Positions 2,034 through 64,000 are shown, counted from the stretch's first letter. The stretch is 64,000 nt of DNA from an uncultured Methanosarcinales archaeon (GCA_964604995.1 CAZSAD010000005.1:3221-67220); one strand, 5' to 3'. Numbers and translations: made by a program. The notes: generated by a model from the letters alone, not told the origin.

Positions 2034-2080
2034 TTAACCTAATTAACTAATCATTTTAATTAATCATTTTTCCAATTTTA

Positions 2081-2086: not shown

Positions 2087-2091
2087 TCTTA

Positions 2092-2544: not shown

Positions 2545-2667
2545 ATAAATACCTTATAACAAGCCATAACTTACCAAATATTTAATCTAATAATCAAAAT
2601 CACTTAAATAAACAATAAAAATATTAAGAGGTTATCCTTAAATTACATAAGTTACAATAAATAAGGT

Positions 2668-6195: not shown

Positions 6196-6218
6196 TTAAC
6201 AAACTCGAAAAAAAGAAA

Positions 6219-15200: not shown

Positions 15201-18200
15201 GCAAATCCCAATATCTGCAGGATATCTCCAAGAGAAGATTATCTCAAATTAGACAATGATCCAATGGATGTTGTTGGGCATGGAACACATTGTTCAGGGA
15301 TTGCTGCTGGAGTTGGCAACAATAATTTGGGGATAATAGGAATATGTCCTTCATGTAGCATAATGCCAGTTAGGGCAGGAATGTTAATTGAAATAAATTC
15401 AAATGGCCAATATTATCAAAGTGGTGGCCTTAGTGATGATGCAATTGTAAATGGGATTAAATATGCTACAGATAACGGAGCTAGAGTAATAAGTATGAGC
15501 TTTGGAGGAAGGGAATATTCACAACTTCAGAAAGATATGATTGATTACGCATACAGCAAAGGTGTTGTTCTTATTGCTGCTGCAGGAAATGAGAATACCG
15601 CTGAAAAACCATACCCTGCAGGTTATGATAATGTGCTTTCAGTTGGTGCAACAGATGAATTAGATAATAAAGCATCTTACTCAAATTATGGGGATTGGGT
15701 TGATGTAGCAGCGCCTGGAAGCAACATACTTAGTACAGTACCAACAAAAATAAGTTACAGTTCAGAGCTTAAACTTGGATATAGTTTATTTGATTCCTAT
15801 CCTTTTGAATATTCTGCAATAGTGGAAGATGAAAGTGTTCATGGCATGTTGGCTAATGCAGGTAATGGAACAATAGAAGAACTAAATAATGTTAACCTTA
15901 CTGGAAAAATAGTTCTTATTAAAAGAGGAGATATTTCATTTCATGATAAAGTTGAAAATGTTTATAATAAAGGTGCAATTGGTGTTATAATCTATAATAA
16001 TGCACCTGGTAGTTTTATAGGCACGTTAGTTAATCAATCAAAAATACCTGCAGTAAGTGTAAGTGAGGTAGTTGGAAATTCTTTGCTTTATTATGTTAAT
16101 AGCTCTTTGATAAATATTTCAATAAAAGTAAATAAGATAACAGAAAATTATGAACTTGAAAGCGGAACTTCTATGGCAACACCTTATGTTGCAGGAATTG
16201 CAGGATTGTTGCTATCGAAAGAACCTAGCCTAAAAAATAGTGAAGTTTATGCTAAAATTATTACCGGAATAGATTTGATTCCTGATAAAACTATAGGTCA
16301 AGGTAGGGTCAATGTTACAAAAGCATTACAAGAAAATCCTAATTCTATTATAACTCTGGAAAATGTGAATATTAATGCTAACACTGAATATAATGAGATA
16401 AATCCCGGAGCAGCAGTTGATATTTATTTTACATTAAAAAATATCGGCGCAAATGCGGGAGATGTTCAAGGAAGTATTATAATTGATAATTCTTATGCAA
16501 CTGTATCTGAAGGGAATATTGATTTTGGAACAATGGATACACTTGCAATAAGAAAAAACACTGCTCCATTTATAATAAAAATAAATAATAATACTCCTAA
16601 AGGAACTAAAATAAATGTTAAGTTAAAATTGACTTCTGCTAATTCTAACTATTCACCTGAATTTGATGTACCAATATATACTTCAAAAACAATAGTTGTT
16701 GGCAAGGATAATCAAAGTGATTATAAAAACATAGGTGATGCTGTAAAAAATGCAAATAGTGGCGATATAATTTTTATCAAAAATGGAATTTATAATGAAA
16801 CTATTACAATAGACAAAAATAATCTAAAGATTATTGGAGAGTCAAGAGATAATACTATCCTTAGTACTAATAATTCATTTGGTGTAGCATTATATATTGC
16901 AGCTGCAAAAAATGTTATTATTGAAAGTATTACATTTGAGCCAAACTCACAATTAAATATTTATAGGGGATTCTCACAAGAGGGGATATTAATATCTGGA
17001 CAAAGCAGTATTTTACCTTCAAGCAACATAAAAATCAGAAATTCTTCATTTAAAAATCTGGACTATGCAATAGATTTGAATGGTCCAGGTTACATAGAAA
17101 ATGTTACTATTTCAAATTCTACATTTATTGATAATTATGAACCTTTGATAAGAAGTATTAGTATGGGTAATAAGATTATAGATGTTTCTTTTGAGAATAA
17201 TTATGTAATAATCAACAATCTTTCAAAATGGATACCTGATGATAGCGGAGGAAATGCTTATGCTTTTTTCAATGATGGTTTGTCCAGCATAGATAATTTT
17301 AGAATAATGGGGAATCATATAATTGATAATGTTAGCAGGGAGCCTAAAAATGCAGTTTCTTTTTTGCATGTATTTATGTTAAACTTTGATGTGGATACTA
17401 AAGATTTAAATAAAAATATTTCAAATAATATATTTGAAAAAACTTATCCTGGAAATTCAAGTACTGCTTTCATACTTGGCGGAAAAAATAATTATTACAT
17501 GTCAAACAACAAATTTGTCGGAAATTATCAACATCTAATTTATAGTCTCGGTTCAAATGTAATAATTGATGGAACAAAACTACAGGACAATATTGGCTCT
17601 GAAGGGGATTATACATATTCTTGTTATTATTTTGGACCAGGCAGTCTTTTAGTTTCGCATAGTGAAATAATAAACGGTACCTTGGAAATTGATTCATGTT
17701 CTGTAAATGATAAAATAAATTATTCAGTTAATTCAAATAGGTATTCTGAGTATACTGGTGAAGATATTAATGGGGATGGAATAGGTGATACTCCTCAGAA
17801 GATTTATGACCAAAATGGAAATTTTATAACACAGGACAATACACCATTAATTTTATTTTCAGGTATAAAATTAACTCGTCCAAAATCACAAATAATAAAC
17901 AATGGAACAATAAATATAACTGGATATTTGTTTATGGATGTTGAACAATTCTTAGGCAATTCTTGGCAAGGATACCAAATGGTTTATGAAGATACTTTAC
18001 CAAGAACAATTCCTGCAAATAATGTCCAAGCATTAGATACAATTTGGAACAATTATAATATTTCAATTAATGATCCTGGAAAATACAGAGTGCATGCGGA
18101 ATTTAGAGATGCATATGGTGGAGAGCCAATTCAAACAACAACTGGCCTTCTAAATAATTATTGGGAGTTTAATGTTAGTGGAACAATTCCAATAATTCCA

Positions 18201-21200
18201 TCAGGAGAATTAAATTTATTCACATCAAAAAATAATTATCTACAACAAGAGTCAATAATACTAACTAGTAATTCAAAAATAGAAAATACTGGTTTAATCC
18301 CAATTACCGGCTATTTATCTGCTAATATCGAGCAATTTAACATTTATTATCAAATAAACGAAGAAACTGATAAAAAGAAAATTGGGAATGAATACAATTT
18401 CTTAGAACTTGGAGAGGCAATTAATGCAACTGGTCAGACAATATTCTCATCAAATGATTTAAATGCACTTTCAAATGAAACTTTCCAAAATTCTCTTGGA
18501 ACATTTACATATACTCAAAAATTAGAATTACCTTCTGCAAAAGTTGTTTTTGAAGAAGATACTGATCAATCAAATGATCCAAGCTTATACTTAAAATTCG
18601 ATGCAAATAAACCAGCATACACCTACACTTTGCAATTTACTCCTCCAATTGAAAGCGGAATCATAAATCAAACTCTTAAAGATCTACAAGGACATAATTT
18701 GCAATTATTTGACAAAACTTTTCAAATAATTTCTGCAAAAAATGAAAGTAACAAATTATCCTTAAATTTATTACAAACAGAATTAGTTGATATCTTACAA
18801 GAAGGCTCAACAAAAACTTATACTCACAATGGAAAAGACTACCAAGTAACAGCAAGTTACATCTCAAGTAGCGAAGCAAGGTTTACAATAAATGGTGAGA
18901 CAACTGATAAATTATCGGAAGGAGAAACTTACACTTTAGTCGATGGAACAAGAATTGGTGTTTTTGATATAATAACTAATTTTATTGGGGAAAATTTATC
19001 AAATAATTTTGTTCAATTTGGTTTAGGAGTAAATAACTTAAAAATAACTGATTACAATCCTTCAACAGCTAATTGGGATGCAAAAGTAGCTGATGGCAAT
19101 GAAGATTTAATGAATTTAAAAGCAGATATTATAGTTACAAGTTTTTCAAATGGTATTACTAAAATAAAAGAATTAAAATTTAAATATCTTCCTTCAACAG
19201 ATCTGCATGTACCAATTAGTGGAAAATTAAGCACAATAGCAGAGTATGAAGAAAGTGAACTAGGAAATGTTCTTGTCAATGGTTTTGATGTTCAATTAAA
19301 AGGATTTAATGAAACTCAATTAAATTGGGAAGCAATAAAAATCTTTAGCAGTTCAAGTCTTAGTTATAATTTAATATTTAGAAATAGAAATGGACAAACA
19401 TATAACATTCCTGTTTGGGGATACGATAATTCATCTAGAAAAATTAAACTAGGTTATAGGGATGATTATTCATTTAAAAATTTAATAATAAATGAAGCAA
19501 TACCTATCTTAACTAATGAATATTTTATATTAAGCCCATCCTCAACACAAAAAACACACATCTTCCAATTCAATAGTGTAAACACAAATGATAACACTTT
19601 CAAAATAAAAGATTTAATGGAAGGTGGTTCAACAATAGAAGTAACTAATGCAACATCTTTTGTTGTTGATGGAACAGCATATTATGCTTATTATAATGGT
19701 TCAGGAAGTGATGCAAAGATTTATGTTGATTTAAATGGCGATGGAATAATTCAACAAGGTCAAAAAGTAGACAAAATATATACCTTTTATTCTGGAAGCG
19801 ATGGATATTTGCAGCTTATTCAAAATAATATTTCAACAAATGCCTCAGGAATTTTTGTAACACAAAAAACTCAAAACCTGCCTCAAAATAATTTCCAAGA
19901 AAAAATAAAATGGAAATTTTATTTTAATTACACTTCAAATAAAATAATGCTTGATAGTCCCATCAATGATTTTGGATCTTATGATTCAATGAAAAAATTA
20001 GATTCACTAGACAAATATGTTGGTCTAACTTACTATGGCGCTTATGGCGACTATGATTATGGAAATGCACAAAGTCCATTATTAGAATTCCAATATCCCA
20101 ATCAACAATTAGAAATACTTGTTTATGTTATGGGTAATAATTATCCTACACCTCAAGCAATTTCAAGTTGGCAACATTATAGCACTATTATAGATGAAAA
20201 CTTTTCAAGAACAGTTCCTGCAAATAATGTCCAAGCATTAGATACTATTTGGAACAATTATAATGTTTCAATTAATGATCCTGGAAAATACAGAGTTCAT
20301 GCAGAGTTTAGATATGAATATGGTGGAGAGCCAATTCAAACAACAACTGGCCTTCTAGAAAATGTTTGGGAGTTTAATGTTAGTGGAACATCATCACAAT
20401 ATCAAATGCAAATAACCTATCCACAAAATAATTCCATAATACTTAGTAGTTCTACTCAAGTATTAGTAACTACAAATACTCCTTCTTCTTGCGATTATTC
20501 ATACATGGTAGTTTCTTCAAATGGTGTAGGTGTGGGCTCACCAACTATATTTATGTCAACAACAGATGCATATCATTTTTCTGCAACAATTAATAATTTA
20601 CTCTATGGTGATAATGTTACAGTTCATGCATATTGCTATTCTAATGAGGGTAATGTTTATGCAACCTCTTCAGTATTTTTTAGAGTTCAAATTTCTTCGC
20701 AATGTGGAAATAATTTATGTGAAGGCAATGAAACAGTGCAAAGCTGTCCAATTGATTGTAGGGAAGTAAACTATCCAGAATACTGCCCACAATATAACAA
20801 AGCAAATAATGATAATAGTAACCATGGACCAGGGGGAAACTTGGGAAATTCTTTATCACTTTCTACAAAAACAAATTTTGATACATTAAGTGAAGAAACT
20901 TTAAAGAAAATTATTATTCAAGGTGATATTCAAAAATTTAAATCATTAAAACTTTCAGTGCAAATGATAAGTCCTGGAATTTTTAGTGTAACTTCTAAAA
21001 ATCAAAGAATCGATGTAATGCAGCAAAAACTGCCTGAAATAGCAACACTAATGGATAGCAATGGAAATAAATTTGTTGTAAATCTTGCTGTAGTTTTTAA
21101 TGAGCAATATGCAAATGGTTACATTGTTGAGTTTGAAGGATTGTCATTAGTTGAATACAAAAAACAACTTGAATTAAATATCAAAGATATGCAAACCAAA

Positions 21201-41447: not shown

Positions 41448-41465
41448 ACTTAAAGGTGAATCACA

Positions 41466-41687: not shown

Positions 41688-41759
41688 TTTTATTTTTTTA
41701 TCTTATTTTTTCTTTATACAATCAAAATTTATTTATACTTGTTCATATAACTTTAAACT

Positions 41760-45182: not shown

Positions 45183-45908
45183 CTATTTATGTTTTTCTTT
45201 TTTAAACCCTATTTGCCATCCTAAATAAGTAAATACACTGCCTAAAAATGCAATTGTAAGAAATACTCTAAAAGCCATTTTTGCAAAGAATTCTTGCGGA
45301 TACATCTTAATAAGCAAAGTTTCGCTTCCAAGCAGCCATGTATCTGACTTAAATATTAATTCATGAAAATTTGTCCAAAAAATTTCAAATTTTAAAGCAA
45401 ATAATGCTAAAATAATAACAATTCCTATAACAAAAATCCCACTAAAAAATAAGATTCTTGCAATTGCTTCTCTAAAACTAAACTCTAATTTTCTTTGAGT
45501 CAATAAATACAATAATCCAACTACTATTAAAATTGCAAATAACATTATTTTTAAAATAAAAAATCCATAAGAAACAACTTCTTTTACTTCAACCATGTGA
45601 TTAATTTCTCTTGCAGATAACCCCTCTAAAACCAAAAATTCATTTTTTTCATTTTTTAGATAATCAAGAATAACTAAAGTATTATTATAATATTTATTTG
45701 ATAAATCTTTTGTTAGCAATCTTTCATTTGTTCTTTGCTCAAAATCTACTCTGTAAAAATTATTGTTATACATATTTATAAAAATTGAACCTAAAAAAAC
45801 AGTTGTCACACATAAGAAAAAGCATATAACCACTAAAACCAATACAATTGGTCTTCTAAAATCTTTTCTAAAATGTTTAGTATTTTTAGCTAATGTTTGC
45901 TTTGCCAT
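45183..45908 (-). CDS. Polytopic membrane protein, hypothetical
   Basis: At least four hydrophobic helices. Confidence 0.5.
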   Translation of the reverse strand: MAKQTLAKNTKHFRKDFRRPIVLVLVVICFFLCVTTVFLGSIFINMYNNNFYRVDFEQRTNERLLTKDLSNKYYNNTLVILDYLKNEKNEFLVLEGLSAREINHMVEVKEVVSYGFFILKIMLFAILIVVGLLYLLTQRKLEFSFREAIARILFFSGIFVIGIVIILALFALKFEIFWTNFHELIFKSDTWLLGSETLLIKMYPQEFFAKMAFRVFLTIAFLGSVFTYLGWQIGFKKEKHK

Positions 45909-51358: not shown

Positions 51359-51829
51359 ATGGCAAAGCAATTAGTAAGCAAAGATACTCCACTAGCTGAA
51401 TTAACTCTAAGAAGATATGAAAAGCCATATGATCTAAGTAAAAGAGAACTTGTGAAAAAACTTTGCTTAAGTTTGGGCCTTTTGAATCCTGGAGATTCAA
51501 GAGATGTAATTGTTGATGTCTTCTTTGTATTATTAGACGCAAAAAAACAATCAAAACAATTATCTTCAGTTGAAATAACACAAAAAGTAATTGACAAAAG
51601 AAAACAAGAAAAATTAAAGCTTCATGGCATTGCACATTCAAATATAAGGCGACAAGTTGCAAGATTAAGGCAATTATTCTTAGTTGAAAAAATAAAAAAT
51701 AAATATCGCATTTCTGAAAATGGTTTATTGCAAGAAGCTTTTGCACAAAAAATTCAAAATTTTGTTTTGCCAACTATAATTGGCAGAATAAATGACTATC
51801 TAAAAAGAATAGATGATGAATTCTCTTAA
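51359..51829 (+). CDS. Hypothetical protein; possible winged-helix DNA-binding protein
   Basis: Balanced composition. The antisense ORFs 51351..51773 and 51355..51597 are L/F-rich, as expected for shadow ORFs, so the + strand was chosen. Confidence 0.45.
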   Translation: MAKQLVSKDTPLAELTLRRYEKPYDLSKRELVKKLCLSLGLLNPGDSRDVIVDVFFVLLDAKKQSKQLSSVEITQKVIDKRKQEKLKLHGIAHSNIRRQVARLRQLFLVEKIKNKYRISENGLLQEAFAQKIQNFVLPTIIGRINDYLKRIDDEFS

Positions 51830-51840: not shown

Positions 51841-52644
51841 TTATTTTTGTGCAATGATTTTAGAGCAAACTAAGAACATATAATATCTTGCCCAATTGAA
51901 GAAAAGAAATGATACAATTAGTGAAGATATAATAAACATGTAAGGATTTATTGAATTTAAAGGATTTACTATCAATACTAAGGGAATAGCAAATACTATA
52001 TAAGCGTAAAATATTGATAATGCTAATTTATGTGGATTTTTCAGCAATTTAAAAACTGCTAAAAATCCTTTCCCTATTTTAGAATTTGAAGATAAACCAT
52101 AAATAAATGCATTATAAAAATACAAAAAGCAAAGTACTATAATTGGTCCAATAAATTTTAATGCTGTAGCATTTATGTTTTTAATTGAAAACAGTATAAA
52201 AGCATATAGCATCATTACAATCATTATTTTAAAAACACAAGTAATTATAGCATTCAATAAAAATTGCCACCATCTTTCTTTTCTTTCAAAATAATTTTTT
52301 AATATAAATCCTCTCCAAAACATATTATTAGCAATTAAAAGTATAATAGTGCTAAAAAAATACAATCTGAAATTTTTAACAGCACTTGCAACTACTGTTA
52401 ATTTATTAAAAGAAAATAACTGTGCCATGTTCATGGAATTAAGTAGTGGCCAGGCATCTTTTGTTAAAAGTACAAATCCTCCCAAGATAAACAAAAATAT
52501 TGAATAATGTGCTACATCAAAATAAAACATTTTTAAAAATGGCTTTTCAAACTTAAAACTTTTAGCAAAAGAACTATTAAGAAAATAATCTAATAACTTA
52601 TTTTTTCTTTTTTTAGAATTTTTTATATTATTTTGTTTTTTCAT
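51841..52644 (-). CDS. Polytopic membrane protein
   Basis: At least six hydrophobic helices. Confidence 0.5.
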   Translation of the reverse strand: MKKQNNIKNSKKRKNKLLDYFLNSSFAKSFKFEKPFLKMFYFDVAHYSIFLFILGGFVLLTKDAWPLLNSMNMAQLFSFNKLTVVASAVKNFRLYFFSTIILLIANNMFWRGFILKNYFERKERWWQFLLNAIITCVFKIMIVMMLYAFILFSIKNINATALKFIGPIIVLCFLYFYNAFIYGLSSNSKIGKGFLAVFKLLKNPHKLALSIFYAYIVFAIPLVLIVNPLNSINPYMFIISSLIVSFLFFNWARYYMFLVCSKIIAQK

Positions 52645-52657
52645 GGTGTTATTATTT

Positions 52658-54826
52658 TTAACTTATTCTTGGTTGAAGTAATGTTCCTGGGCAGATTTGC
52701 AAATGTTTCAATGGTGCATTTAAATCCATTATTCCTTTAGGTTCCCCTTCATTTGTTGATTGGAACATAATCTTACTTTTTTGCATATAATCCTCTTTAA
52801 CTGTAAAATTTACAAGAGCTCCACCAACAAAAGTTGATCTTATTTCCATATCTTTATTTGGTAAGGTAATTCCACCAATACTCTCTGAAAATGCAGGTAT
52901 TACTCTTGGAGCATTCTCGGGATAATTATAACTTAACATTATTTGCGCTGTATAATTTCCAGGTCCCAATGCAACTTGTGTCTTATCGTTGCCATTAAAT
53001 GTGGGAACATAAGCTAATATAAAATTTCCATCTTTTGCAATTCTTGATATTTGTATTGAAACTTTATGACTTTCATTTAAAGACGCAATTTCAGATGTTA
53101 TTTCACAATATTCTGTATTGTCCGGGTAGGTTGTTATTTTAGTTACATAACTAATTAATCCAACTTCAAGTGTTTTAAGAGGTACAATATCAAAAGTTGG
53201 AACATATCCTGGTATAAATCCTTCATCTGTACTAAATCCCCTATAAGCATCCATATATTTTGGATTTGTTATTCTAAGCATACCTCCATGACAAATTGGA
53301 AAATTAGAGGTAAGCAAAACATTACCGCTCTCATTTTTTTTTGCAATACCAACGCTACAAAATAATCCTATTGGGGTACATTGGTAATCTACAATTGCAC
53401 CATCTAATAAATTACTATTTGCTTCAATTTTCGCATCTTTAAATTCAATTGTTATTGGATCACTTTGTGCTTGATTAGAATCGCAATCTAAATCATTTAG
53501 ATGTGCAGTAATATTATTATCAGAATAATTATTTATTGCAGGTGGGTTCATTAATGAATATCTTGGTGCATTGTCCCTTACAACAATTAGCATTGGAAAT
53601 TGAAAATTATATTCATGTCCTAATTTTTTATCTTCTATATTAATTAACACAGGATATTCAAAACTATATTTGTAATTGTAACCATTTTTGCATTGATTAG
53701 GCGTGAACATGCTGCTAATATCAATACTTGAAGTTGGCATTAATATTCCGCCTGGTCCAATTTGACCATTTATTAAAAATATATTTGTTGGATAAGGTGT
53801 TACAGTAACCACAAAATCACTATAATTTTCCCTTGTCGCATCAATAATTAACCCATCAAAGAAATTTCGAAGTGAAAGTGCTTCAATTGGGTCAGGATAC
53901 TCTGTTTTTGAAACTTTAATTTTTGTAAATCTAGTGTTGTTGTATCTGACTAATGGGATATTATCATTTAACATCTGATTAAACAAAGTTTCAGCATCTC
54001 CAACATTCCACATCTGTTTATCAGAACAACTTTCATCTTTGTCTCCTCCTTCTCTAGGTGGCAAATAATCATCTCTTATTGCTTCATAAGAAGGCATTAT
54101 ATTATTCAAAGTAAGTGTTTCAAAACTATTAAGTGCAATTTCATGTATCATTATATCTGACGCAAGTCCATATATTTTTGCAAGCCTAATTGGGGAACTT
54201 GCAGAAAAAGAACTAATTTCCAAATCTTTTCCACTTTTGCTTATTTTTAATGGATATTCAATTTCTGCTGTAATATCTTCATCATTAAAACTTAAATAAA
54301 CTCCTAAATCTCCTTGCTCTTCAAAAGAATAGCCCATACCTACAAAATTTTGAAAATCATTAAAGCAATCAGATATATTTGTTGCAATATAATCTGCAAG
54401 TTGTCTTTGCATAGAATAATCATCAGGTATGTAATTTTGTATCAGTAAACTTGGTGCATTATCTATATAATTAATCCCATTTTTTTGGTTATACCAATAA
54501 GGAATATAAAAATTTGGAACAACTTCGAGCAAATCTCCACTTCTAAAACCTTGAATTGGTTTTTCAAATCTTGAGTCTATATCAACCCATCCAGCTTGCA
54601 TTCCTATTTTTGTTAATCCATCTTCCAATGTGGTTTCAACACAGTTATCAATAAATGTTTTGATTGGTTTTATTTCATCGGGAACAACAATAACTTGACT
54701 TACTTCAGTATTCATCTTTTGCTCTGTTTGATTATTTCTAAAATAAAAAAATAATGCAGAAGCGAAAAGTAAAACTATCGCTATGATAATAAACAAAGTA
54801 ATTTGACCTCTTTTTTTCATTCTCAT
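52658..54826 (-). CDS. Large (722 aa) pilin-like or surface protein with a class III signal peptide
   Basis: MRMKKRGQITLFIIIAIVLLFASALFFYF. Confidence 0.6.
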   Translation of the reverse strand: MRMKKRGQITLFIIIAIVLLFASALFFYFRNNQTEQKMNTEVSQVIVVPDEIKPIKTFIDNCVETTLEDGLTKIGMQAGWVDIDSRFEKPIQGFRSGDLLEVVPNFYIPYWYNQKNGINYIDNAPSLLIQNYIPDDYSMQRQLADYIATNISDCFNDFQNFVGMGYSFEEQGDLGVYLSFNDEDITAEIEYPLKISKSGKDLEISSFSASSPIRLAKIYGLASDIMIHEIALNSFETLTLNNIMPSYEAIRDDYLPPREGGDKDESCSDKQMWNVGDAETLFNQMLNDNIPLVRYNNTRFTKIKVSKTEYPDPIEALSLRNFFDGLIIDATRENYSDFVVTVTPYPTNIFLINGQIGPGGILMPTSSIDISSMFTPNQCKNGYNYKYSFEYPVLINIEDKKLGHEYNFQFPMLIVVRDNAPRYSLMNPPAINNYSDNNITAHLNDLDCDSNQAQSDPITIEFKDAKIEANSNLLDGAIVDYQCTPIGLFCSVGIAKKNESGNVLLTSNFPICHGGMLRITNPKYMDAYRGFSTDEGFIPGYVPTFDIVPLKTLEVGLISYVTKITTYPDNTEYCEITSEIASLNESHKVSIQISRIAKDGNFILAYVPTFNGNDKTQVALGPGNYTAQIMLSYNYPENAPRVIPAFSESIGGITLPNKDMEIRSTFVGGALVNFTVKEDYMQKSKIMFQSTNEGEPKGIMDLNAPLKHLQICPGTLLQPRIS

Positions 54827-54845
54827 GTTAATACCTTATTATATT

Positions 54846-56612
54846 TTAACAAGTTTTATCGCTAGATGATAATGCTGAATAATAGCTGGTAGTTGTAGTT
54901 ATTGGATAGCAATATTCTTCTTTATTGTTAAAATCGCTTCCAGTTAAAGCTTGCACACAAACTTGATTAAATCTACAACTGTTTTGTCCACCAGGGCAAT
55001 CTACTCCATCTTTTAGTGGTCCAGTTTTTCCACCACTATAAAAATGCCTATTAATCACAAAAGATTGAATTGCAAGATTATCTGCAATAACATAATCCGG
55101 AATGTTTATTCCATTTTCACCACTGCAAGTATTTTTCAACCATATTTTCCATGTCGAATCAACTGTTGGAAATATTTTTACAGTTACAAGATATAAATAA
55201 TTATCATCGCTTATTTGGCTAGCTTCACCATTCAAACTTACAGAATTCGCATTCATATTCGCATAAATTGTTTGAAGATCAGTATCTGGCATTCTAGTCC
55301 ACATAGTATTTGAATAAAAACCTTGATTATATGGTGAATTGTATATCTGACTTGTCGTTATAGCTTTACATGCATCTTTTGCACCAATTATTGCAGGATC
55401 AATCCATCCAGTTACTGCACTCCACAAATAATCAAACACTAACATTTCAAGTGCTTGTCCAACACTTGTTGTTATTTTTCCAAGTCTTCTATCTTTATTG
55501 TCAGCTTTAAATTTATCATATTGTTTAATTGCATCATCATTTTTAAGTTTACCATCAGCATCAAAGCAGGCTTTAGGGCAATACCAATAAGCAAAATCTG
55601 CTCTTGCATTTTCACCCATCTCTACCCATCCAAGACCTTTTAACATTAGTGGAATAAATGTTCTACCAGATTTACTCAAATCTTTTGCAGTTTCTTTAGT
55701 CATTGTAAATGGAGTTTTACTATATTTGAATATAAGGTTTCCATTAGTTAGGGTGGTTGTAACATAATAAGGTGTTTTACTAAACGTAACTTCTCCCTTA
55801 TCATTTGCACCAACATAAATTTTTTCCTCATTTGAATTAGTATAATATTTTAATCCAGTTCCACTTTCTTCGTATGGTGTAAGGCTACTAGTATAATCAG
55901 TAGGTAAACCAAAATCAGCTGGATTAGTATCTTTTGAAGCAGGTGGTGGGAATGGGTCATTGCTAAATATTTGTTGATTATTGGAATTAGTACCTAAATA
56001 AACTTTGCCACCATTTTTATCTAAAGTGTATGTTCCTTTACCATCATTGTCATTTTTTATTACCCATTTATTTCTATCTGGATCTAAATTCCATTGTGTT
56101 GGATCCAATTCTTTACTTGGTGGAGTAAACGCTGCATTGCTAAATATTTGTTGATTATTGGAATTAGTACCTAAATAAACTTTGCCACCATTTTTATCTA
56201 AAGTGTATGTTCCTTTACCATCATTGTCATTTTTTATTACCCATTTATTTCTATCTGGATCTAAATTCCATTGTGTTGGATCCAATTCTTTACTTGGTGG
56301 AGTAATAGAGGGGGGGGTAATAGGTGACACAACAACTTTAGGTTTAGTAATTGTTTTTTTTACTGTTGTAATTGTTTTCTTAACATTATCTTTTGGTTTA
56401 TCTTTATTTATATTTTTACCAATATTATTAATTGGAAAATATTGCGCTTCAACAAATGCAGATAATATAACACTACCTAACAAAATTATTGCAACCATAA
56501 TTGCAAAAGTCCATTTAATTTTTTTAGCAGTTATTCCCATAATCATCACAAGTATCATAACATTCATCTGGATTTGTCGTGCAATCCACATTTTGATTAT
56601 TGTTATTTCCAC
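54846..56612 (-). CDS. Secreted/anchored repeat protein with a perfect 59-aa tandem duplication
   Basis: TM/signal WTFAIMVAIILLGSVILSAFVEAQ; 2x FTPPSKELDPTQWNLDPDRNKWVIKNDNDGKGTYTLDKNGGKVYLGTNSNNQQIFSN. Start uncertain; overlaps the end of the upstream gene by up to 89 nt. Confidence 0.55.
   Translation of the reverse strand: MEITIIKMWIARQIQMNVMILVMIMGITAKKIKWTFAIMVAIILLGSVILSAFVEAQYFPINNIGKNINKDKPKDNVKKTITTVKKTITKPKVVVSPITPPSITPPSKELDPTQWNLDPDRNKWVIKNDNDGKGTYTLDKNGGKVYLGTNSNNQQIFSNAAFTPPSKELDPTQWNLDPDRNKWVIKNDNDGKGTYTLDKNGGKVYLGTNSNNQQIFSNDPFPPPASKDTNPADFGLPTDYTSSLTPYEESGTGLKYYTNSNEEKIYVGANDKGEVTFSKTPYYVTTTLTNGNLIFKYSKTPFTMTKETAKDLSKSGRTFIPLMLKGLGWVEMGENARADFAYWYCPKACFDADGKLKNDDAIKQYDKFKADNKDRRLGKITTSVGQALEMLVFDYLWSAVTGWIDPAIIGAKDACKAITTSQIYNSPYNQGFYSNTMWTRMPDTDLQTIYANMNANSVSLNGEASQISDDNYLYLVTVKIFPTVDSTWKIWLKNTCSGENGINIPDYVIADNLAIQSFVINRHFYSGGKTGPLKDGVDCPGGQNSCRFNQVCVQALTGSDFNNKEEYCYPITTTTSYYSALSSSDKTC
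55961..56314 (-). repeat. Perfect tandem duplication, 2 x 177 nt, in coding sequence
   Basis: 55961-56137 and 56138-56314 are identical by direct reading. Confidence 0.85.
56310..56317. repeat. G8 (C8 on the coding strand) homopolymeric tract inside a surface-protein gene
   Basis: agagggggggggtaa; encodes TPP. Rare in a ~30% GC genome. Confidence 0.7.
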
Positions 56613-59600
56613 CCAAATCCGGACTTGTACTATCCATTGCTTTATGTTGTTCTACTAATTTTTTAGTTTCTTGGATTTTTCCAATATATAAACCAGTTGT
56701 TGCAGCAGCATATGCATAACATTGTGGTTCCCATGCAAGTCCGCCTGTTGGGCAAATTTGCCAAGTCATACCTAAATCTCCAATCAATTCCAATGCCCAT
56801 TTCATAGCATAACTTTTTACATAGTTTAATACTATATTTACCATATATCTTGCAATAACATTTCCCCCACCAGAATACACACATTCAAATTGTTGTTCAT
56901 ATTGATTGCACATTATTGAATTACTATTACCCATAATCGTTTTTTCTTTATTGCATGCTTCAGTAGTTGTTTTAACTACTTTTTTCATTTGGTAATAATT
57001 ATATAATCCAGTAACGCAAGGTGGCAATTGGAACCACGCAAGCCATATATTTGTCCTTGGATCCATATTACTATCCATATAAGATGACCATTTTATTCCA
57101 TCACTAGTTTCATCTTGAGCAGTAGCAGCTTTGGTTAAATCATCCATTGTTCCATCTGCCAGGGCACTAAATCCACTAGCCCATGTACCTCCAGAATCAC
57201 AAGTAAAAGCTGAACACCAATATTTTACAGATGTAACATCCCATGGACTTTTTATTTGCCAATATCCCCACATTGTAGCAAATGCTGAGGTAACAGTTGA
57301 TCCAAATCCAGGAACCCATCCTAATCCTGCTGCAGCAATGGATACTATTTCTAAACTATAAGCGTAATATTTACATCCATCCAATCCAAAATTAACTATC
57401 GGATATAATTCATCAGACCATTTTTTAGCATTTTCAATTTCTTTTTTAATATCTTCAGACATGGGCGAAGTCCTATCTTCTCTAAATCTATTGAACTTAG
57501 AAGTAAGGTCAAAATTAATTGTCGCACTTACATATTCATAATCATTGTAAACATAATTCTTATCTGTGTTTTTTATTGCAACTGTACAAGTTACTTTTAT
57601 TTCATCATTTGTACTTTTTTTCAAGAAATCATCTTTTAATGTTGGCAATTGCACAACAAAATATTTTTGTGTTCTATCTCCATTAATATAAAAATTAGAA
57701 TTATCTACTCCTAATTCTAGTACATCAGGATACTGGGGAGATGTACAATTGATTATATCGGCTAAAGCAATTTTTAAATCAGAAGAAACTCCACTTTTTT
57801 TAGTTAGTGTTAGGGTGTTTCTAATATATAACCCCCCAGTTGCAGAACTTATTGAACTAGACTTAAGAAAATTTCTATTTATAGATGATATTTGAGGGGT
57901 CACTGTAGCAGTCCAATGAGTGCCACTTTGACTAGTTCCACTATCTTTATATTTTAATACACCACAACCCTCAGGTACATTAGCTACATTATTATGAACT
58001 GTGCTTTTTATCATATTTCCTGCTTTATCAGTAACATTAATGGAAAATGTTCCGTACATAGATGAGCCATTTTCACACTCTGTAATCTGTGTTGTCCAAG
58101 GGTTGTATGCTCCAAATTCCCATTGACAAACCCATTTGTTATTTTCTGTTGATTTGCAACCACAATCTGAACACATTGAAATAGAAGGAGATGAAATTTC
58201 ATTCAATCCTCTTGAATTCATAATTGCTTTAAGTGGTAAAAATGTATTTGTTTCATCAATTCCAAATCCTGTTGCACTAGATTCATCAATATATATAATT
58301 ACATCTACTGCTTGAAATCTAATTGGATCAATAAGTGAAGGGTCTTTATTAACAACTTCAATTTTAGTTACTTTTGGATAAGTAATATCTACAGAAAATG
58401 TTTTTGGTAGGGTTATGGGAGTTACTGCAAAATCATCTTGTACACTTAATTCTATATTAACATTCTCTCCAGTTGAATCGCTAATTCCCAATTCTGATGC
58501 ACTAAATCCAACTGGTTTAGAAACAGTTCCTTCTCTATAAAACATTAAATTATATTTTCCATTTGATGTGCTAGGGAATACATAAATTAATGCATTTGCG
58601 GGAATAGATGTGATCCCTACTTTCAATTTAATTTTATCACCATTATAATTTCCAATAGGTGTTAATTTAACAGCACTAATTGTTGCGAAAAATACATTGT
58701 CTTTATCTTTTATCCAATTGCCATTTTTTGTTTTAATTTCATCTATTGTTGAAGTTTTTGTTGTTTCTACTTTCAATTCTTTACTTTGATTATTTCCTGC
58801 ATTATCAACAAAATTAACATAAACATCTTTTCCAAAACAATTTGATGATGTAGCTCCAGCATTTGTCCAAGTGCATTTAACTTTGGTATTTGTTTCATCT
58901 ACATAAGCGCATTCAGTAGCTTGTACTCCACTTGCAGAAAGTTCACATTCACTTGGTCCATTCAAATAAACATTCCACCCATATCCTCCGCTTGTTTTAT
59001 TGTATAAAATACCTGAACCAGCAGTAGAATCCTGTGCTATTGCTTCAACATCCATTCCGGAGCCAATTCCTAATGAATCTTTATTTGTTAAAAGAACCGA
59101 ATCTTGTTCAATTGTAGGAACATTAATGTCAATTTTTATTTTGCAGTTATTATTGGTATCATCGCATCCTAAATGAGATGTTTTTGAAAATGTATTTCCT
59201 GCATCATCTTTACTATCAGATGTAACATCAAAAGAAAAGAGTTGTCCATCACTCCCTCCAGAAATATTAACTCCATTAAATGTACATTTGTAAAGACCAG
59301 CACTATTATCAATACAATTTCCACTAATATCCCCATTAGCACTACTAATTCTTACATTATTGTTATTAAATCCACTGCTCCCTTCTTTTGTTAAATCATT
59401 TGGAGTATCATTAATATAAAAATCAAGTTTGTTATTATCTTGTTTAACCCACCCAACAACTGAACTATTTACTCTAACAAGTGTTGGTGCAGTATTATCT
59501 GGCAATGCCTTAGGTAATTCATTTATTGCAAATAATGTTGTATCTAAAACATTTCCTGCAATATCACTTATTTTAACAGTAACTGGATTTGTTTTTATTC

Positions 59601-60747
59601 CAGTATTACTTGTAGTAATATTCCATGTAGCTGTCCACTTATTTTGTACATCTGATACTACAGTTACTACACCATTAACACTCTGTTGAGTTTTACTAAA
59701 ATATGATGCATTCAAAATTGCACTTGGTGGATTGCTTTGTTCTTTAGTAAAATTTGCAATTATTGCTAATACTTCTCCATCTTTAATATAATCTGTAGAA
59801 GTAATAATTGTTCCAGTTGAATCTGTAATTATTTTTTCTGCAGGCTCCATTAATTCTGGAGCTTTAAGATCTAATGTATAAACAGTTTCATCACAAGCAT
59901 CCGAAGTTGTTGCCAAGTCTAATTTATCTTTTGCATTGCCACATATTTTTACATTCCCTTTAAACTCTGTTCCAAAAATATTAACAATGTCTGATTTTGG
60001 AAAAGTAACTGAACTGTTGTTTGGAGGTATACTTGTTATTAAATTACATCCAGAATTTATACTGCTAAGATCTTTTTGCACTTGGATTAATCTAGGAGTT
60101 GTAAGAGAAGTAACACCTTGTTCTATAATATAAATATTAACTTCTTTTATTCCTGCACATTGCATTCCATTAGCACCAGAAAAAGCTTGATCATTTGCAT
60201 TAAAAGGAATCGATAATTTACCATTACTAAACATCAAATAATTATTTGGTGCGACAATTGTTCCAATGCTAAACATAGGAGGCATATCATCAACATAAAA
60301 AGTAAATGGTCTTTGTTTTACAAACCAATTATTTGGAGGAGTTGTATTTGTTAATGGATAGCGATACAATGCGACAAGTTCATTAACATATTGTCCTGCT
60401 GTAAAATAAGGGGATAAAGTATATTCTTTAGAACATGTAAAATAACCTGAATTAATGTTTGACTGAACGCATGGTCCACTTCCAAATAACATCCATTGAC
60501 TTGGCAAATAAAACATTAAATTGTCTTTTGTTACTGTCGTAGCAGATAATTGTGCATCAGCTTTGATAATAAGAGTATCTTGTTTTCCAAGTACATTTCC
60601 TTCTCTTTCAACACCATTTCTTTTGCTGCTTATTGCAATATTATCATATAAATCATCAGCCATAACTTTAGAAATATAAATTGGCATACTAATAACTAAT
60701 AAACTTATAAATATAGCAATTCCTTTTAACCCACGCATTCTACTCAC
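56524..60747 (-). CDS. Large (1407 aa) secreted protein, Cys-rich C-terminus, probable Ig-like/beta-rich domains
   Basis: Signal peptide MSRMRGLKGIAIFISLLVISMPIYISKVMA. Confidence 0.6.
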   Translation of the reverse strand: MSRMRGLKGIAIFISLLVISMPIYISKVMADDLYDNIAISSKRNGVEREGNVLGKQDTLIIKADAQLSATTVTKDNLMFYLPSQWMLFGSGPCVQSNINSGYFTCSKEYTLSPYFTAGQYVNELVALYRYPLTNTTPPNNWFVKQRPFTFYVDDMPPMFSIGTIVAPNNYLMFSNGKLSIPFNANDQAFSGANGMQCAGIKEVNIYIIEQGVTSLTTPRLIQVQKDLSSINSGCNLITSIPPNNSSVTFPKSDIVNIFGTEFKGNVKICGNAKDKLDLATTSDACDETVYTLDLKAPELMEPAEKIITDSTGTIITSTDYIKDGEVLAIIANFTKEQSNPPSAILNASYFSKTQQSVNGVVTVVSDVQNKWTATWNITTSNTGIKTNPVTVKISDIAGNVLDTTLFAINELPKALPDNTAPTLVRVNSSVVGWVKQDNNKLDFYINDTPNDLTKEGSSGFNNNNVRISSANGDISGNCIDNSAGLYKCTFNGVNISGGSDGQLFSFDVTSDSKDDAGNTFSKTSHLGCDDTNNNCKIKIDINVPTIEQDSVLLTNKDSLGIGSGMDVEAIAQDSTAGSGILYNKTSGGYGWNVYLNGPSECELSASGVQATECAYVDETNTKVKCTWTNAGATSSNCFGKDVYVNFVDNAGNNQSKELKVETTKTSTIDEIKTKNGNWIKDKDNVFFATISAVKLTPIGNYNGDKIKLKVGITSIPANALIYVFPSTSNGKYNLMFYREGTVSKPVGFSASELGISDSTGENVNIELSVQDDFAVTPITLPKTFSVDITYPKVTKIEVVNKDPSLIDPIRFQAVDVIIYIDESSATGFGIDETNTFLPLKAIMNSRGLNEISSPSISMCSDCGCKSTENNKWVCQWEFGAYNPWTTQITECENGSSMYGTFSINVTDKAGNMIKSTVHNNVANVPEGCGVLKYKDSGTSQSGTHWTATVTPQISSINRNFLKSSSISSATGGLYIRNTLTLTKKSGVSSDLKIALADIINCTSPQYPDVLELGVDNSNFYINGDRTQKYFVVQLPTLKDDFLKKSTNDEIKVTCTVAIKNTDKNYVYNDYEYVSATINFDLTSKFNRFREDRTSPMSEDIKKEIENAKKWSDELYPIVNFGLDGCKYYAYSLEIVSIAAAGLGWVPGFGSTVTSAFATMWGYWQIKSPWDVTSVKYWCSAFTCDSGGTWASGFSALADGTMDDLTKAATAQDETSDGIKWSSYMDSNMDPRTNIWLAWFQLPPCVTGLYNYYQMKKVVKTTTEACNKEKTIMGNSNSIMCNQYEQQFECVYSGGGNVIARYMVNIVLNYVKSYAMKWALELIGDLGMTWQICPTGGLAWEPQCYAYAAATTGLYIGKIQETKKLVEQHKAMDSTSPDLGGNNNNQNVDCTTNPDECYDTCDDYGNNC

Positions 60748-60847
60748 ATCTGTTCTCTACAACTATATATATTTTTTCATATATGGTCATAGTAACTAAA
60801 TATTTCCGTTATCCCTTTTTTAATTGGTGAACTTGAAATAAAACTAA

Positions 60848-63800
60848 TTATGTAGATACAATTACACAGTCATTAGTCACACCATTCAATGTACAAAACA
60901 CATTTGTTTGTAAATTTTCATAAACTTGCACATCTTGTTTAGTTGCCACGTTTATATTGCATTGAACTTTAACTGTGTATTGTTCAGTATTAAGTAGATA
61001 ATTATGTGCAGTAAAAGCACTTGGTGTTTCTTCATTATTAATATAAATCGCACAATTTTGCGGTGTCGAATCAATATACAAATATCCTTGGGAAATTGGT
61101 GTTAATTGCACTTCAATTGATGTTGTTTGACCATTCGAAATAGTAAAAATTTCAAGTGGAGCAATATATCCTGTCTTATTAACAGTTACATTATGTTCTC
61201 CAATATCTAAAACAAAAGAATGAGGCGTAGGTGTATTCTGGTTTATATCATCTAAAATAATATTAGCATCAGTTGGGGTTGTTCCTACTATTGCAGTTAC
61301 TTCTAGTGTCCCAGTGTTGGTTGGAAGCAAATTAGTCTCAAAAGTAGTTGTCTCTCCTTTTGTGATTGATGCAATTCCGCTATAAGGTATATAACCCTCT
61401 TTAGTAACTTTTATTTCATAATTTCCGGGAGGCATATTATTTAAAATAAAAGAATCTCCTATTGATGCATCTCCCCTATAAACATTACCAACATAAACTT
61501 TAGAATCATCTACATTAGATGTTATTTCTAAAACAGTTGAAACATCAGGATTCATAACAAGTCTTAATCTAGATGTTATTTGTGGATAAATTGCATTCAT
61601 TTTATCAAAACTAAGACTTGATAATGTATAATTCCCAACTGTTCCTGTGCAGTTTAATGTTTGATTATTATATCTATAAATAGAATCGCATATGTAAGTT
61701 GTTAAATTATCATAACTAACAATTACATATTTATCTCCAGTAGCACTTGCATCTTTAAATCTAACTGCGCCAGTAATTGTTTTATTCATTACATGCACTG
61801 TGTAATATCTATCATATTCAAATATTTCAGTTGGAACATCTCTTCTTTGTGTAAAAAGTGATTGAATAAATCCCATTATACTTTTAACAGGATTTGATAA
61901 GAATTGTACAAATGCTCCCCATCTTGAAGCTTTTAATAATTCCATTCCATCTTTATTGTAAACTACAATTTTTGTGTAATTGTCATACCATAATTTATTT
62001 TCAGATGTGCAAGCTTCAAATCCATCTGTTCCTTTTCCCTCGCAAATATGCTCATAACTTGGTCCCAATGTCATTTTTAGATATTCATTAATATTGGTAT
62101 TGTTATTAAGTGAAGTGCCAACAGCAACTCTTCTTTCATAATTATTATTTGGAGAATAATATTGCAGTACACAGAATTTATTTACTGGAATGCCTGGTTT
62201 GTCACTCACACCTTCTTTAAAATATTGTGCAATTGTTTGTTCACCACTTGGATTATTATCTAAATAATTTAAAGTTAAATTATAATTATCACAATGCAAG
62301 CTAAAGTTTTTGATGCTTCCACCTTCAGCACTGTATGAAAAATTCATTAATTCGCTTGCAAGAAGTGCAGTTCTTGTTGTCCAGTTTCCATTCAAGCAAT
62401 ATTTATCTTGGACAAATCTAAAATTATTTGTTGTACAATTTCTTGGATCAAGATACATTTGTTTAAAAACACCCCAACTCTCAACATTTACTGGGGGAGT
62501 TGATCCAAAATAAGATTTATATGATTCTTCTGAAACATAGCATTGCCAATCATAAGAGCAATAAGCATATGATTTATCAGTCCAATCATATCTTCTTGAT
62601 GCATTTGTCCAGTTTCCAGCAGTGCAGATAAACAAATAACTATCTGGATTTGTATTAACATTATTGTTGTAAGGCGGGAATGAATAATTTAACATTGTAT
62701 AATTGCCTTGGCAAGATTGTCCATTCCAACACGAATTAGTGTCATAACAACAGCTGCTAATTGATGGCTGGTTATATAATGCATACTCATTTTGTCTGAA
62801 GAATGGCTGCAATGTGCTAGGCACATAAGAATCAGTATAATCACTAAATACGCAACTAGAATAATTTACAAATCTATAAGTTAAATCTTTCCATAAGAAC
62901 TCATCAACTTTATGGTTATTGTATAAAAGTGATTGATAATGTGTTACAAATATACCATAACCTTTACCAGATAATGATGTTAAATTTGTACAATTTAAAA
63001 CTCTTCCAATTTCACTATTTGGAATTCCTAAATTATTAACACTAACATTACCATATACTGCACTGCAAACTTCTTGTGTGGGGAGTATATCATATAAAAT
63101 TGAAGTATAATTTGTTGTTGCATTAATTCTTTCCCTTATTCCTTCAACTTTGGTTTTAAAGTTTTTGCTTAATCTATTATCTTGTCTATAAAATATTGTC
63201 TCAAAATTCTTTGTTTTATTTATCATATATTTTAAGCCAGTTTTATTGTCAAATGTTTGCGGGAGTAAACTATTATTATTTCTAAATCCTAAAAGTCTTA
63301 AGAACCAATCCCATAATCTTTGGATAAAGTTCAACCCAGTTGGAACTTGCATAGTTTCATCATTTGTAACAATCATGATTTGATAATTTTCATTCCAAAA
63401 TACTTTTTTAATTGTTCCAGTGTAATTAAATACTAATGGTTCATTTGGTGGTAAAATACACTCTTCTATTGGGGTGGGTGGAATATTGTTATCATCATAA
63501 CAATTTGCCCAAAGTCCAAGTGCAATAAAAGTAAATCTTCCAGGTAAATTATTATAATAATTTAATTCAGGATTTGGTGTACTTGTAAAATTATTTGGTG
63601 TCAAACCAATAAGATATTTTTTAGTGTCTAAATTATAAAGCGTACAAATTGGACCAACTGTTAATTTAGAAAGTTCAGATGAATTTTCACATTCAATTGT
63701 ATAATTGGAGTTTGCAGTATATTTATTATCATTAAATTGTAAAAGTGTAAGTGCAATCAAATGTGTTTTTGTTGTCCAGTTTCCTTCAAGACAATAATAA

Positions 63801-63964
63801 TTTCCAGTTACGAAATTATTATCTTGGCAAACATTTCCATCCCAGCAAGATGTTTGATTAATGCAATAGCCATAATTTGTAAAATCATATTTTTCTTTTT
63901 TGTAAACTCTATCCCAATCTGAATAATTCATAACAAAATCATTTGCACCTGTGCCATACTTCAT
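60848..63964 (-). CDS. Large surface protein (at least 1038 aa) with repeated C..GNWT modules and a PEGA-like domain; probably continues upstream beyond the window
   Basis: YYCLEGNWTTKTHL, KYCLNGNWTTRTALL and FICTAGNWTNASRRY recur. PEGA-like NVYRGDASIGDSFILNNMPPGNYEIKVTKEGYIPYS. Frame is open from 63965 to 64000 and there is no signal peptide at MKYGTG. Confidence 0.55.
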   Translation of the reverse strand: MKYGTGANDFVMNYSDWDRVYKKEKYDFTNYGYCINQTSCWDGNVCQDNNFVTGNYYCLEGNWTTKTHLIALTLLQFNDNKYTANSNYTIECENSSELSKLTVGPICTLYNLDTKKYLIGLTPNNFTSTPNPELNYYNNLPGRFTFIALGLWANCYDDNNIPPTPIEECILPPNEPLVFNYTGTIKKVFWNENYQIMIVTNDETMQVPTGLNFIQRLWDWFLRLLGFRNNNSLLPQTFDNKTGLKYMINKTKNFETIFYRQDNRLSKNFKTKVEGIRERINATTNYTSILYDILPTQEVCSAVYGNVSVNNLGIPNSEIGRVLNCTNLTSLSGKGYGIFVTHYQSLLYNNHKVDEFLWKDLTYRFVNYSSCVFSDYTDSYVPSTLQPFFRQNEYALYNQPSISSCCYDTNSCWNGQSCQGNYTMLNYSFPPYNNNVNTNPDSYLFICTAGNWTNASRRYDWTDKSYAYCSYDWQCYVSEESYKSYFGSTPPVNVESWGVFKQMYLDPRNCTTNNFRFVQDKYCLNGNWTTRTALLASELMNFSYSAEGGSIKNFSLHCDNYNLTLNYLDNNPSGEQTIAQYFKEGVSDKPGIPVNKFCVLQYYSPNNNYERRVAVGTSLNNNTNINEYLKMTLGPSYEHICEGKGTDGFEACTSENKLWYDNYTKIVVYNKDGMELLKASRWGAFVQFLSNPVKSIMGFIQSLFTQRRDVPTEIFEYDRYYTVHVMNKTITGAVRFKDASATGDKYVIVSYDNLTTYICDSIYRYNNQTLNCTGTVGNYTLSSLSFDKMNAIYPQITSRLRLVMNPDVSTVLEITSNVDDSKVYVGNVYRGDASIGDSFILNNMPPGNYEIKVTKEGYIPYSGIASITKGETTTFETNLLPTNTGTLEVTAIVGTTPTDANIILDDINQNTPTPHSFVLDIGEHNVTVNKTGYIAPLEIFTISNGQTTSIEVQLTPISQGYLYIDSTPQNCAIYINNEETPSAFTAHNYLLNTEQYTVKVQCNINVATKQDVQVYENLQTNVFCTLNGVTNDCVIVST

Positions 63965-64000
63965 TTTTTTGCTTTGTCTACAAATATAACTTTGTTCCGG

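Follow-up and report, generated by a model that had tools for sequence, protein, structure and literature searches.

A conserved gene cassette for exported and membrane-embedded proteins in Woesearchaeota and Nanoarchaeota

The minus-strand gene island at positions 51841–64000 of a 64,000-nucleotide stretch of archaeal DNA (GCA_964604995.1, CAZSAD010000005.1:3221-67220; "the window" below means this whole stretch), which carries the label uncultured Methanosarcinales archaeon, was analyzed by comparative genomics, profile searches and structure prediction. This analysis shows that the island is one copy of an operon-like, vertically inherited and lineage-specific cassette, encoding three exported proteins without an anchor (F5, F2 and F3) and two membrane-embedded proteins (F1 and F4). 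Judged by its sequences, the cassette is present in hundreds of Woesearchaeota and Nanoarchaeota genomes and was previously undescribed; no description of it was found in the literature on archaeal type IV filament loci and related surface proteins. The window stems from a low-GC DPANN archaeon (Woesearchaeota), because the archaeal translation proteins eIF2-gamma, S6e, L10e and NOG1 are encoded in it and the nearest relatives of its proteins carry the labels Candidatus Woesearchaeota or Pacearchaeota. The G+C content of the window is approximately 29%, and groundwater metagenome contigs hold identical copies of window genes. Scans of the window with Rfam and for tRNAs gave no matches.

Results

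Five tightly packed genes, all on the minus strand, were found in the region in the order F5-F2-F3-F1-F4 (Table 1). A previous sequence-only reading had recognized these open reading frames (ORFs) and had counted more than 3700 amino acids (aa) over the first four of them. Both statements held (1050 + 1407 + 564–588 + 722 aa), with a correction at F3: the true start of F3 is an internal ATG at 56540 or 56567 in place of the GTG at 56612, because the gene calls in the loci L001, L002 and L089 begin at the internal ATG. With this corrected start F2 and F3 overlap by 17 nucleotides (nt), and the remaining gaps are 100, 19 and 13 nt long. Hydrophobicity analysis of the window cassette revealed membrane segments besides the signal peptide only in F1 and F4. 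None of the four cassette families matches Pfam, NCBIfam or PDB sequences; the NCBIfam search gave no match for any cassette protein, and F1 to F5 were without significant match in PDB sequence searches. Profiles built from the alignments of F1, the F2 C-domain and F4 likewise gave no significant PDB match.

The gene order that the sequence-only reading had pointed out is conserved. The locus in GCA_018303405.1 contains F5-F2-F3-F1-F4 and the convergent gene F6 in the same order (six orthologues), with identities to the window of 30–35% for the exported proteins, 31% for F4 and 73% for F6. More distant F1 relatives also adjoin proteins of 1040–2219 aa. The leader pattern K[RK][GA]QITx[FY][IV]I was then scanned over one genome per species, which gave 546 matches, 426 of them encoding F1 relatives. 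For 77 loci that were kept, ORFs were called and profile searches were iterated locally. Nearly all of these loci are labelled Woesearchaeota, Nanoarchaeota or Nanoarchaeia. The remaining ones carry the label 'uncultured Methanosarcinales' or, in the case of two short contigs, a bacterial label, which we take to be mislabelling or mis-binning. Apparently, F1 is a large family found in DPANN archaea only.

F1-type genes are almost always coupled to a protein of 1000–2900 aa in the 77 loci, 65 of which contain F2 and 47 F4. Where an F1 gene had at least 3 kb on each side (38 evaluable genes), F2 was located directly downstream in 25 and adjacent in 33 cases; the median F1-F2 gap over 65 pairs is −4 nt. 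The commonest layout is F1-F2-X-F4, in which X denotes a Sec-signal protein of 400–900 aa (a cluster of 30 members from 30 loci). The arrangement F1-F2-(0–3 genes)-F4 was observed in 30 loci, and 18 of them run straight into a second F1, which is again followed by F2 and F4 where the contig is long enough. First and second paralogue sets are orthologous across loci (best hits 33/36, 30/31 and 21/21). They form separate orthologous groups, and the tandem duplication is therefore old. F2 and F4 of the window are closer to the first paralogue set, and the gene order of the window (F5 in first, F1 in fourth place) is found again in L082. Several divergent cassette copies occur per genome.

Methionyl-tRNA synthetase (MetRS) flanks or precedes the cassette in 13 loci (e.g., L022 3-1844, L011 965-2632), which suggests that the cassette has been inherited vertically at a constant place in the chromosome. 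We also considered a mobile element or provirus but discarded this reading, since housekeeping genes surround the cassette and its site is syntenic. Two further types of genes were observed in these neighborhoods: a membrane protein of approximately 350 aa encoded on the opposite strand recurs in 15 loci, and genes of the Nucleotidyltransferase/HEPN type often interrupt the cassette between its genes.

F1 begins with MRMKKRG/QITLFIIIAIVLL, where the slash marks the predicted cleavage site. Its short basic leader ending in [KR]-[GA] and the following hydrophobic helix of approximately 20 residues correspond to a class III-type signal, and MRMKKRG/QITLF agrees with the archaeal class III pattern (FlaFind cleavage rule). 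The prepilin-like leader described in the sequence-only reading is thus present, and its KKRG/Q junction is common to F1 and the small pilins encoded at 765-3189 of the window. An alignment of 93 F1 members showed K at position −3 in 97%, R or K at −2 in 99% and G or A at −1 in 96%, with Q located 4–8 residues from the start in most members. The resulting logo is K(97%)-[RK]-[GA]-Q-I-T-x-F(95%)-I-I-x-G(90%), with Y at +21 in 70%. Position +5 is occupied by Phe (95%) as opposed to the Glu of the pilin motif. G at +9 (90%) and Y at +21 lie outside the pattern that was used for retrieval. Second-copy F1 genes retain leader variants such as KRGQISIFIIIG. In a large protein collection F1 has 12 detectable relatives, in which Q8, T10, C62, G79 and C154 are invariant; this set was collected by overall similarity.

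The AlphaFold2 model of F1 (predicted local distance difference test, pLDDT, 70.7) consists of a 36-residue N-terminal helix, a low-confidence linker, an alpha/beta domain and three C-terminal beta-sandwich domains. Fold searches gave no match for the alpha/beta N-domain. The best structural matches in the PDB for the model were SlaB, CnaB-type pilins and transthyretin-like domains. No similarity between F1 and SlaB that goes beyond a generic beta-sandwich array and includes the C-terminal coiled coil and transmembrane segment was found. The sequence-only reading had called the 722-aa protein pilin-like. This part of it was not supported: F1 is not a pilin but a multidomain protein, its N-terminal helix is set off by a linker, it matches neither Class_IIIsignal nor pilin models, and the small pilins of the window (1-3189, 40935-42335), to which it is not related, have nothing but the KKRG/Q junction in common with it.

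The most likely start of F2 is 60747 or 60738; the signal peptide obtained with it is conserved between the window and the orthologue. This hydrophobic, Sec-type signal peptide is followed by no further transmembrane segment and no anchor. The protein consists of repeats of an immunoglobulin (Ig)-like module (D..P.I / C..C.W / A.D..GN) and a Cys-rich, mostly helical C-terminal domain of approximately 400 aa with the motif C.PGI..NL.K.RQI.C.Y..CL. Nine Cys residues are invariant in the alignment of 41 F2 members, and the window protein matches the F2 family profile from end to end (E 1e-69 and 1e-59). Among these 41 members Pfam detected Big_3_3 in 7 and Big_13 in 2, and none in F2 of the window; searches with the F2 profile retrieved Big_13 and Big_3 repeat proteins. 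Word-indexed searches for F2 homologues returned the query alone or bacterial Ig-repeat proteins, and an exhaustive search with the C-domain of the window protein gave six proteins in all. Strongly hydrophobic helices were not found in this C-domain, and the only domains contained in most F2 proteins are the Cys-rich helical one and the Ig-like repeats; an enzyme or pore-forming domain is not recognizable in them.

Both F2 and F3 of the window end with a Cys residue (..GNNC, 56524-56535, and ..DKTC, 54846-54857), as do their L006 orthologues (..LTDC and ..LGDC). These residues may serve as intermolecular disulfide or attachment sites. In a Pacearchaeota genome (L009 11894-18553, and L010) the gene next to F1 on the downstream side encodes 2219 aa, in which the Cys-rich segment of F2 is combined with a C-terminal Amidase_3 domain. 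This peptidoglycan amidase domain hints at a bacterial cell wall as the target.

F3 possesses an N-terminal Sec signal peptide, no second transmembrane segment and a conserved Cys-containing C-terminal domain. The window gene contains a perfect tandem duplication of 177 bp (59 aa, 55958-56305). Only a single copy of this unit is present in three further assemblies of the same strain (L001, L002, L089; genes of 505/514 aa), which reflects either real copy-number variation or collapse of the repeat during assembly. F3 and X share their position in the cassette as well as the Sec signal. The C-termini of X (loci L015-L088) are mostly ...D/G-W or ...D-I / G-A-x-I.

N-glycosylation sequons (N-x-S/T) were counted and compared with local 30-residue shuffles. 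The X family contained 44 sequons with 158.5 ± 11.9 expected, and the reverse-motif control was normal. The F3 family contained 5 (22.7 ± 4.4 expected) and F3 of the window none (7.4 expected). F2 showed a mild depletion (568 observed, 681 ± 22.5 expected; in the window 14 versus 20.7), and the F1 family was neutral. Sequons were enriched in F5 (34 observed, 19.3 expected), in the 5728-aa giant protein encoded near the start of the window (134 versus 92) and in a 3043-aa protein encoded behind it (83 versus 53).

The reading frame of F5 stays open through the 36 nt from the ATG at 63964 to the window edge. F5 aligns to residues ~1118–1986 of the 2043-aa orthologue in GCA_018303405.1 (35% identity), and approximately 1100 aa are therefore encoded outside the window, in line with the extension that the sequence-only reading had suspected. 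Neither a search of contigs nor two scans of metagenomes yielded the N-terminus. In L082, a relative of 1037 aa begins with a Sec-type signal peptide. Also correctly recognized from the sequence had been a Cys-rich C..GNWT module, which occurs three times (residues 70, 459 and 535 of the 1050-aa reading), and a PEGA-like domain. The latter was identified as PF08308 (E 7.5e-19, 67.9 bits with a Pfam gathering cut-off of 20.8) in three C-terminal stretches.

F4, rightly described before as a polytopic membrane protein, has five or six (~6) hydrophobic transmembrane segments. Only one position (D43) is conserved in more than 80% of 55 aligned members, and neither an Asp pair/GxGD nor the catalytic motifs EExxxR/HxxxN were found in this alignment. 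No recurrent Pfam match was obtained for 53 members, and no meaningful PDB profile match was observed. Assignments of F4 as a prepilin peptidase, a CPBP protease or a split TadC/T2SSF platform protein were rejected since these motifs and a relation to the T2SSF family are missing. A 412-aa protein was tested as an F4 member and likewise rejected.

The convergent neighbor F6 resembles a winged helix-turn-helix protein by eye only and had neither a family nor a PDB match. It adjoins F1-type genes in three genomes; the identity is 73% to the orthologue next to the L006 cassette (13013-13483) and 59% to a gene beside F1 in L074 (9051-9518). Being much better conserved than the cassette proteins, it could be a linked regulator.

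The sequence-only reading had further proposed that the combination of a giant and a pilin-like protein occurs twice in the window. An all-against-all BLAST of the window proteins revealed that residues 5–226 of F1, including a KKxQITLF leader, are homologous to the 357-aa protein of island 1 (5122-6195, E ~5e-16). The gene of this paralogue lies directly upstream of the 5728-aa giant and overlaps its start. The giant contains at least four subtilase (S8) domains, an I9 propeptide, PA, PEGA, PKD, CARDB, FG-GAP and pectinesterase-like domains. As the earlier reading had noted, its PEGA domain (E 6.9e-11, 42.3 bits) is shared with F5. The proposal thus stands as far as the F1 paralogue beside the giant, the shared PEGA domain and the coupling of F1 to large proteins in the 77 loci are concerned. 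It does not stand for the large proteins themselves, which are non-homologous between the two islands, the giant being a multi-subtilase protein, and the position of F1 differs (first in island 1, fourth in island 2). Taken together, the observation was confirmed and its interpretation supported in part; the comparison indicates that the recurring architectural theme is real and stronger than the earlier reading could see. Membership in the F2 family was examined for the 5728-aa and 3043-aa proteins and rejected for both.

The only canonical start codon upstream of KKAQITLF in the F1 paralogue (region 5122-5240) is the TTG at 5122. It gives a 39-residue leader, which far exceeds the 4–8 residues typical of the family. 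The start is uncertain, and the copy may be degenerate or may use a non-canonical start codon.

Table 1: Positions of the cassette genes and of related features in the window.
Feature	Position	Strand	Description
F5	60848..64000	-	Large exported protein, C-terminal 1050 aa, open to window edge
F2	56524..60747	-	1407 aa, exported, Sec signal, Ig-like repeats, Cys-rich helical C-domain
F3	54846..56567	-	Exported, ~564-573 aa (start 56540 or 56567), Sec signal
Tandem duplication within F3	55958..56305		177 bp x 2.0, perfect
F1	52658..54826	-	722 aa, class-III-like leader, N-terminal transmembrane helix, N-domain and three beta-sandwiches
F1 leader and transmembrane helix	54740..54826	-	MRMKKRG/QITLFIIIAIVLLFASALFFYF
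F4	51841..52644	-	267 aa, polytopic membrane protein, orphan family, last cassette gene
F6	51359..51829	+	156 aa, cytoplasmic protein, convergent with F4
F1 paralogue, island 1	5122..6195	+	357 aa, leader and N-domain, KKAQITLFMILGFVIL
Island-1 giant	6180..23366	+	5728 aa, paired with F1 paralogue; multi-subtilase, PEGA

Several other features of the window were observed. Five small class-III-signal pilin genes are located at 1-3189 (+), the first one cut by the window start. Their leaders are KGQAALEFLMTYGW, KKRGQAALEF, QGQVSMEY, KKRGQSAFEA and KKRAQGWATD, and among them only the gene at 1557-2033 matches Pfam Class_IIIsignal PF04021 (weakly, E 9e-4). Two paralogous pilin-like genes are found at 40935-41447 and 41760-42335 (+; MKKKGDLSLS.. 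and MKSKKGIELS..), one of which has a weak UpsA-like NCBIfam match (E 0.05). A pilus assembly ATPase or platform gene was not detected in the window. The 3043-aa protein (23397-32528, +) has an N-terminus that ends in L-T-G-C (..LSLIFLTGCPS). This sequence resembles a lipobox and suggests that an archaeal protein bears a signal of the lipoprotein type. The gene at 45183-45908 (-), which may be linked to this lipobox protein, clearly encodes a homologue of Lit, the lipoprotein intramolecular transacylase of bacteria (PF07314, E 2e-23); such a gene is unusual in an archaeon. The eIF2-gamma protein (35455-37035, +) carries a low-complexity, Ser/Lys/Glu-rich N-terminal extension of approximately 120 aa (..SKEHTSKEHVSKEHKKK..).

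Discussion

With synteny, topology and family structure as the observed framework, we infer the function and assembly of the cassette and the processing of F1 as follows. We give an even chance to a surface complex that serves the envelope and/or contact with a host, with F1 and F4 retaining F2, F3/X and F5. F1 would insert in the membrane, and its basic leader would be removed after G/A by a class III (prepilin) peptidase, which would also serve the small pilins of the genome (KKRG/Q). The processed helix would remain in the membrane or in a short pseudopilus-like stalk. Two Sulfolobus structures follow this logic, namely the SlaB stalk of the S-layer and the bindosome with its class-III-signal sugar-binding proteins. 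Together with F4, the ectodomain of F1 would retain the anchorless proteins F2, F3/X and F5 on the cell, at the outer face of the cytoplasmic membrane. The Ig-like, PEGA and Cys-rich domains displayed in this way would provide envelope structure and/or contact with the host cell; all DPANN archaea cultivated so far require host-cell contact (PMC11291902). With their avoidance of N-glycosylation sites, F3/X are probably subunits that are buried or that have to remain unglycosylated for assembly.

Several results weigh against such a complex. The loci were retrieved via the leader pattern, and conservation at the positions of this pattern is consequently inflated. Class III processing of F1 is suggested by the motif; PF04021, pilin models and NCBIfam pilins matched neither F1 nor its first 70 residues at E values up to 1, and no A24-type peptidase domain was found among the window proteins scanned. 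No type IV filament ATPase or platform gene was found near the cassette, and a VirB11-like Walker A protein within 10 kb was present in just one of the 77 loci. The SlaB and pilin matches of the F1 model are generic beta-sandwich arrays with template modeling scores (TM-scores) of 0.1–0.2, and the structure model of the F2 C-domain (pLDDT 52.8) was unusable and left out of the fold search. Finally, F3 was equated with X on the basis of position and sequon avoidance, their homology being unestablished (hhalign probability 9.6%).

Among known systems, the bindosome of Sulfolobus with its PibD-processed sugar-binding proteins resembles F1 in the basic leader, the G/A junction, the N-terminal helix and the large globular ectodomain. 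In both cases the hydrophobic helix would hold the protein at the membrane, and a long filament would be unnecessary. However, there is no relation in sequence or fold, and F1 is not a solute-binding protein. The cassette lacks the genes for a Bas-type ATPase, a platform and small pilins, and nothing in the bindosome corresponds to the pairing with F2, X and F4.

The cassette could also encode an S-layer or the main envelope scaffold, with F2 as canopy, F1 as stalk in the manner of SlaA/SlaB and the paralogue sets forming a heteromeric or alternative lattice. We regard this as unlikely. In Sulfolobales, too, a large Ig-rich protein without an anchor and an anchored protein of tandem beta-sandwiches are encoded side by side; SlaB was the best PDB match of the F1 model, and the gene of the large protein overlaps that of the anchor protein. 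The cassette is moreover old, vertically inherited and located at a conserved site beside MetRS, and archaeal envelope proteins from type IV pilus loci typically have conserved Cys residues (PMC4858521). On the other hand, the match to SlaB is generic (TM-scores 0.12–0.17), and the anchor is C-terminal in SlaB and N-terminal in F1. Archaeal S-layer proteins are normally glycoproteins, whereas F2 is depleted and F3/X is strongly depleted of glycosylation sites. The extra polytopic protein and the multiple divergent copies per genome also distinguish the cassette from SlaA/SlaB.

Just as unlikely, in our view, is an interpretation of F1 as a modular minor pilin and of F2 as a PilY1-like tip adhesin, for which the shaft would be built of small pilins (e.g., 765-3189) and the ATPase and platform would be encoded elsewhere. 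The cassette would then serve as the priming or tip complex of an attachment pilus. In type IV pilus tips (PilY1 with minor pilins, and the archaeal DUF2341/PilY-like adhesins of Epd-type loci) a gene with a pilin-type N-terminus is likewise coupled to a Sec-exported putative adhesion protein of more than 1000 aa. Large class-III-signal or adhesin-like proteins are often found in archaeal type IV filament loci (PMC4858521; bioRxiv 10.64898/2026.04.22.720090), and in island 1 pilins, an F1 paralogue and a giant stand side by side. The KKRG/Q junction shared with the small pilins, one of which weakly matches PF04021, fits such a filament, as do Q at +1 and S/T at +3 of F1, which agree with the QxSxE pilin motif. 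Yet F1 has Phe in place of Glu at +5 and exceeds minor pilins three- to fivefold in size. Its helix is separated by the low-confidence linker and not packed in a pilin head, and no homology to the PilY1, DUF2341 or pilin models exists. Assembly genes are not found nearby either: 76 of the 77 loci are without a filament ATPase or platform gene within 10 kb, and small pilins do not recur in the neighborhood clusters of the cassette. F4, which is not T2SSF-like, has no counterpart in known tip complexes.

More speculative and quite unlikely is that the F1-F2-X-F4 tandem pair represents an unrecognized envelope machine of Woesearchaeales/Nanoarchaeota. Such a machine would combine a processed pilin-type helix with the absence of a dedicated filament motor. 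The host cell would receive the subunits without sequons (F3/X, partly F2), by insertion or by transfer, and the contact or bridge that these symbionts depend on would be made in this way.

An effector or attack module, in which F2-type proteins, with enzymatic domains that vary and are C-terminal or inserted, and sequon-free F3/X are released onto or into the host to breach its envelope and F1/F4 form the launching or holding platform, appears very unlikely to us. It would account for the Amidase_3 domain on the Pacearchaeota F2-like neighbor of F1, for the giant with at least four subtilase domains as the partner of the F1 paralogue, for the avoidance of glycosylation sites by F3/X next to enriched surface proteins, and for the fast evolution of the exported proteins beside a conserved F6. 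Most F2 proteins, however, show no recognizable enzyme or pore domain, the C-domain of F2 in the window is without strongly hydrophobic helices, and a toxin-immunity pairing was not seen among the cassette genes. A resemblance to the SPEARE giants of Nanohaloarchaeota (PMC6642349) is confined to the island-1 giant, which like them is a DPANN surface protein of more than 5000 aa with serine protease and adhesion domains. In contrast to SPEARE proteins, no restriction-endonuclease domain was detected in the giant at E values up to 1e-3, and F2, F3 and F5 of the minus-strand island are without protease domains. We know of no F1-type partner that has been described for SPEARE proteins.

A chance neighborhood of unrelated surface genes, with an ordinary uncleaved signal anchor at the N-terminus of F1, might be suspected from the missing family annotation of all cassette proteins and from the abundance of hypothetical membrane proteins in AT-rich DPANN genomes, but it is contradicted by the synteny statistics and hardly conceivable, since dozens of divergent genomes contain these same families together, with stop and start codons that overlap, their order is kept at 30% identity, and a plain anchor would not retain K-[RK]-[GA]-Q-x-T-x-F-I-I-x-G in proteins that are otherwise 20–35% identical.

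Conclusions

Most surface proteins of DPANN archaea lack an annotation, and the way in which these archaea attach to their hosts and exploit them is still an open question. The cassette supplies four co-inherited and searchable families, of which one has a diagnostic leader, one nine invariant Cys residues, and one avoids glycosylation sites. Found in hundreds of genomes and often at a conserved site, these families are concrete candidates for an envelope or host-contact apparatus. If F1 is processed by a prepilin peptidase, the use of class III signals would extend to the anchoring of large non-pilin complexes.

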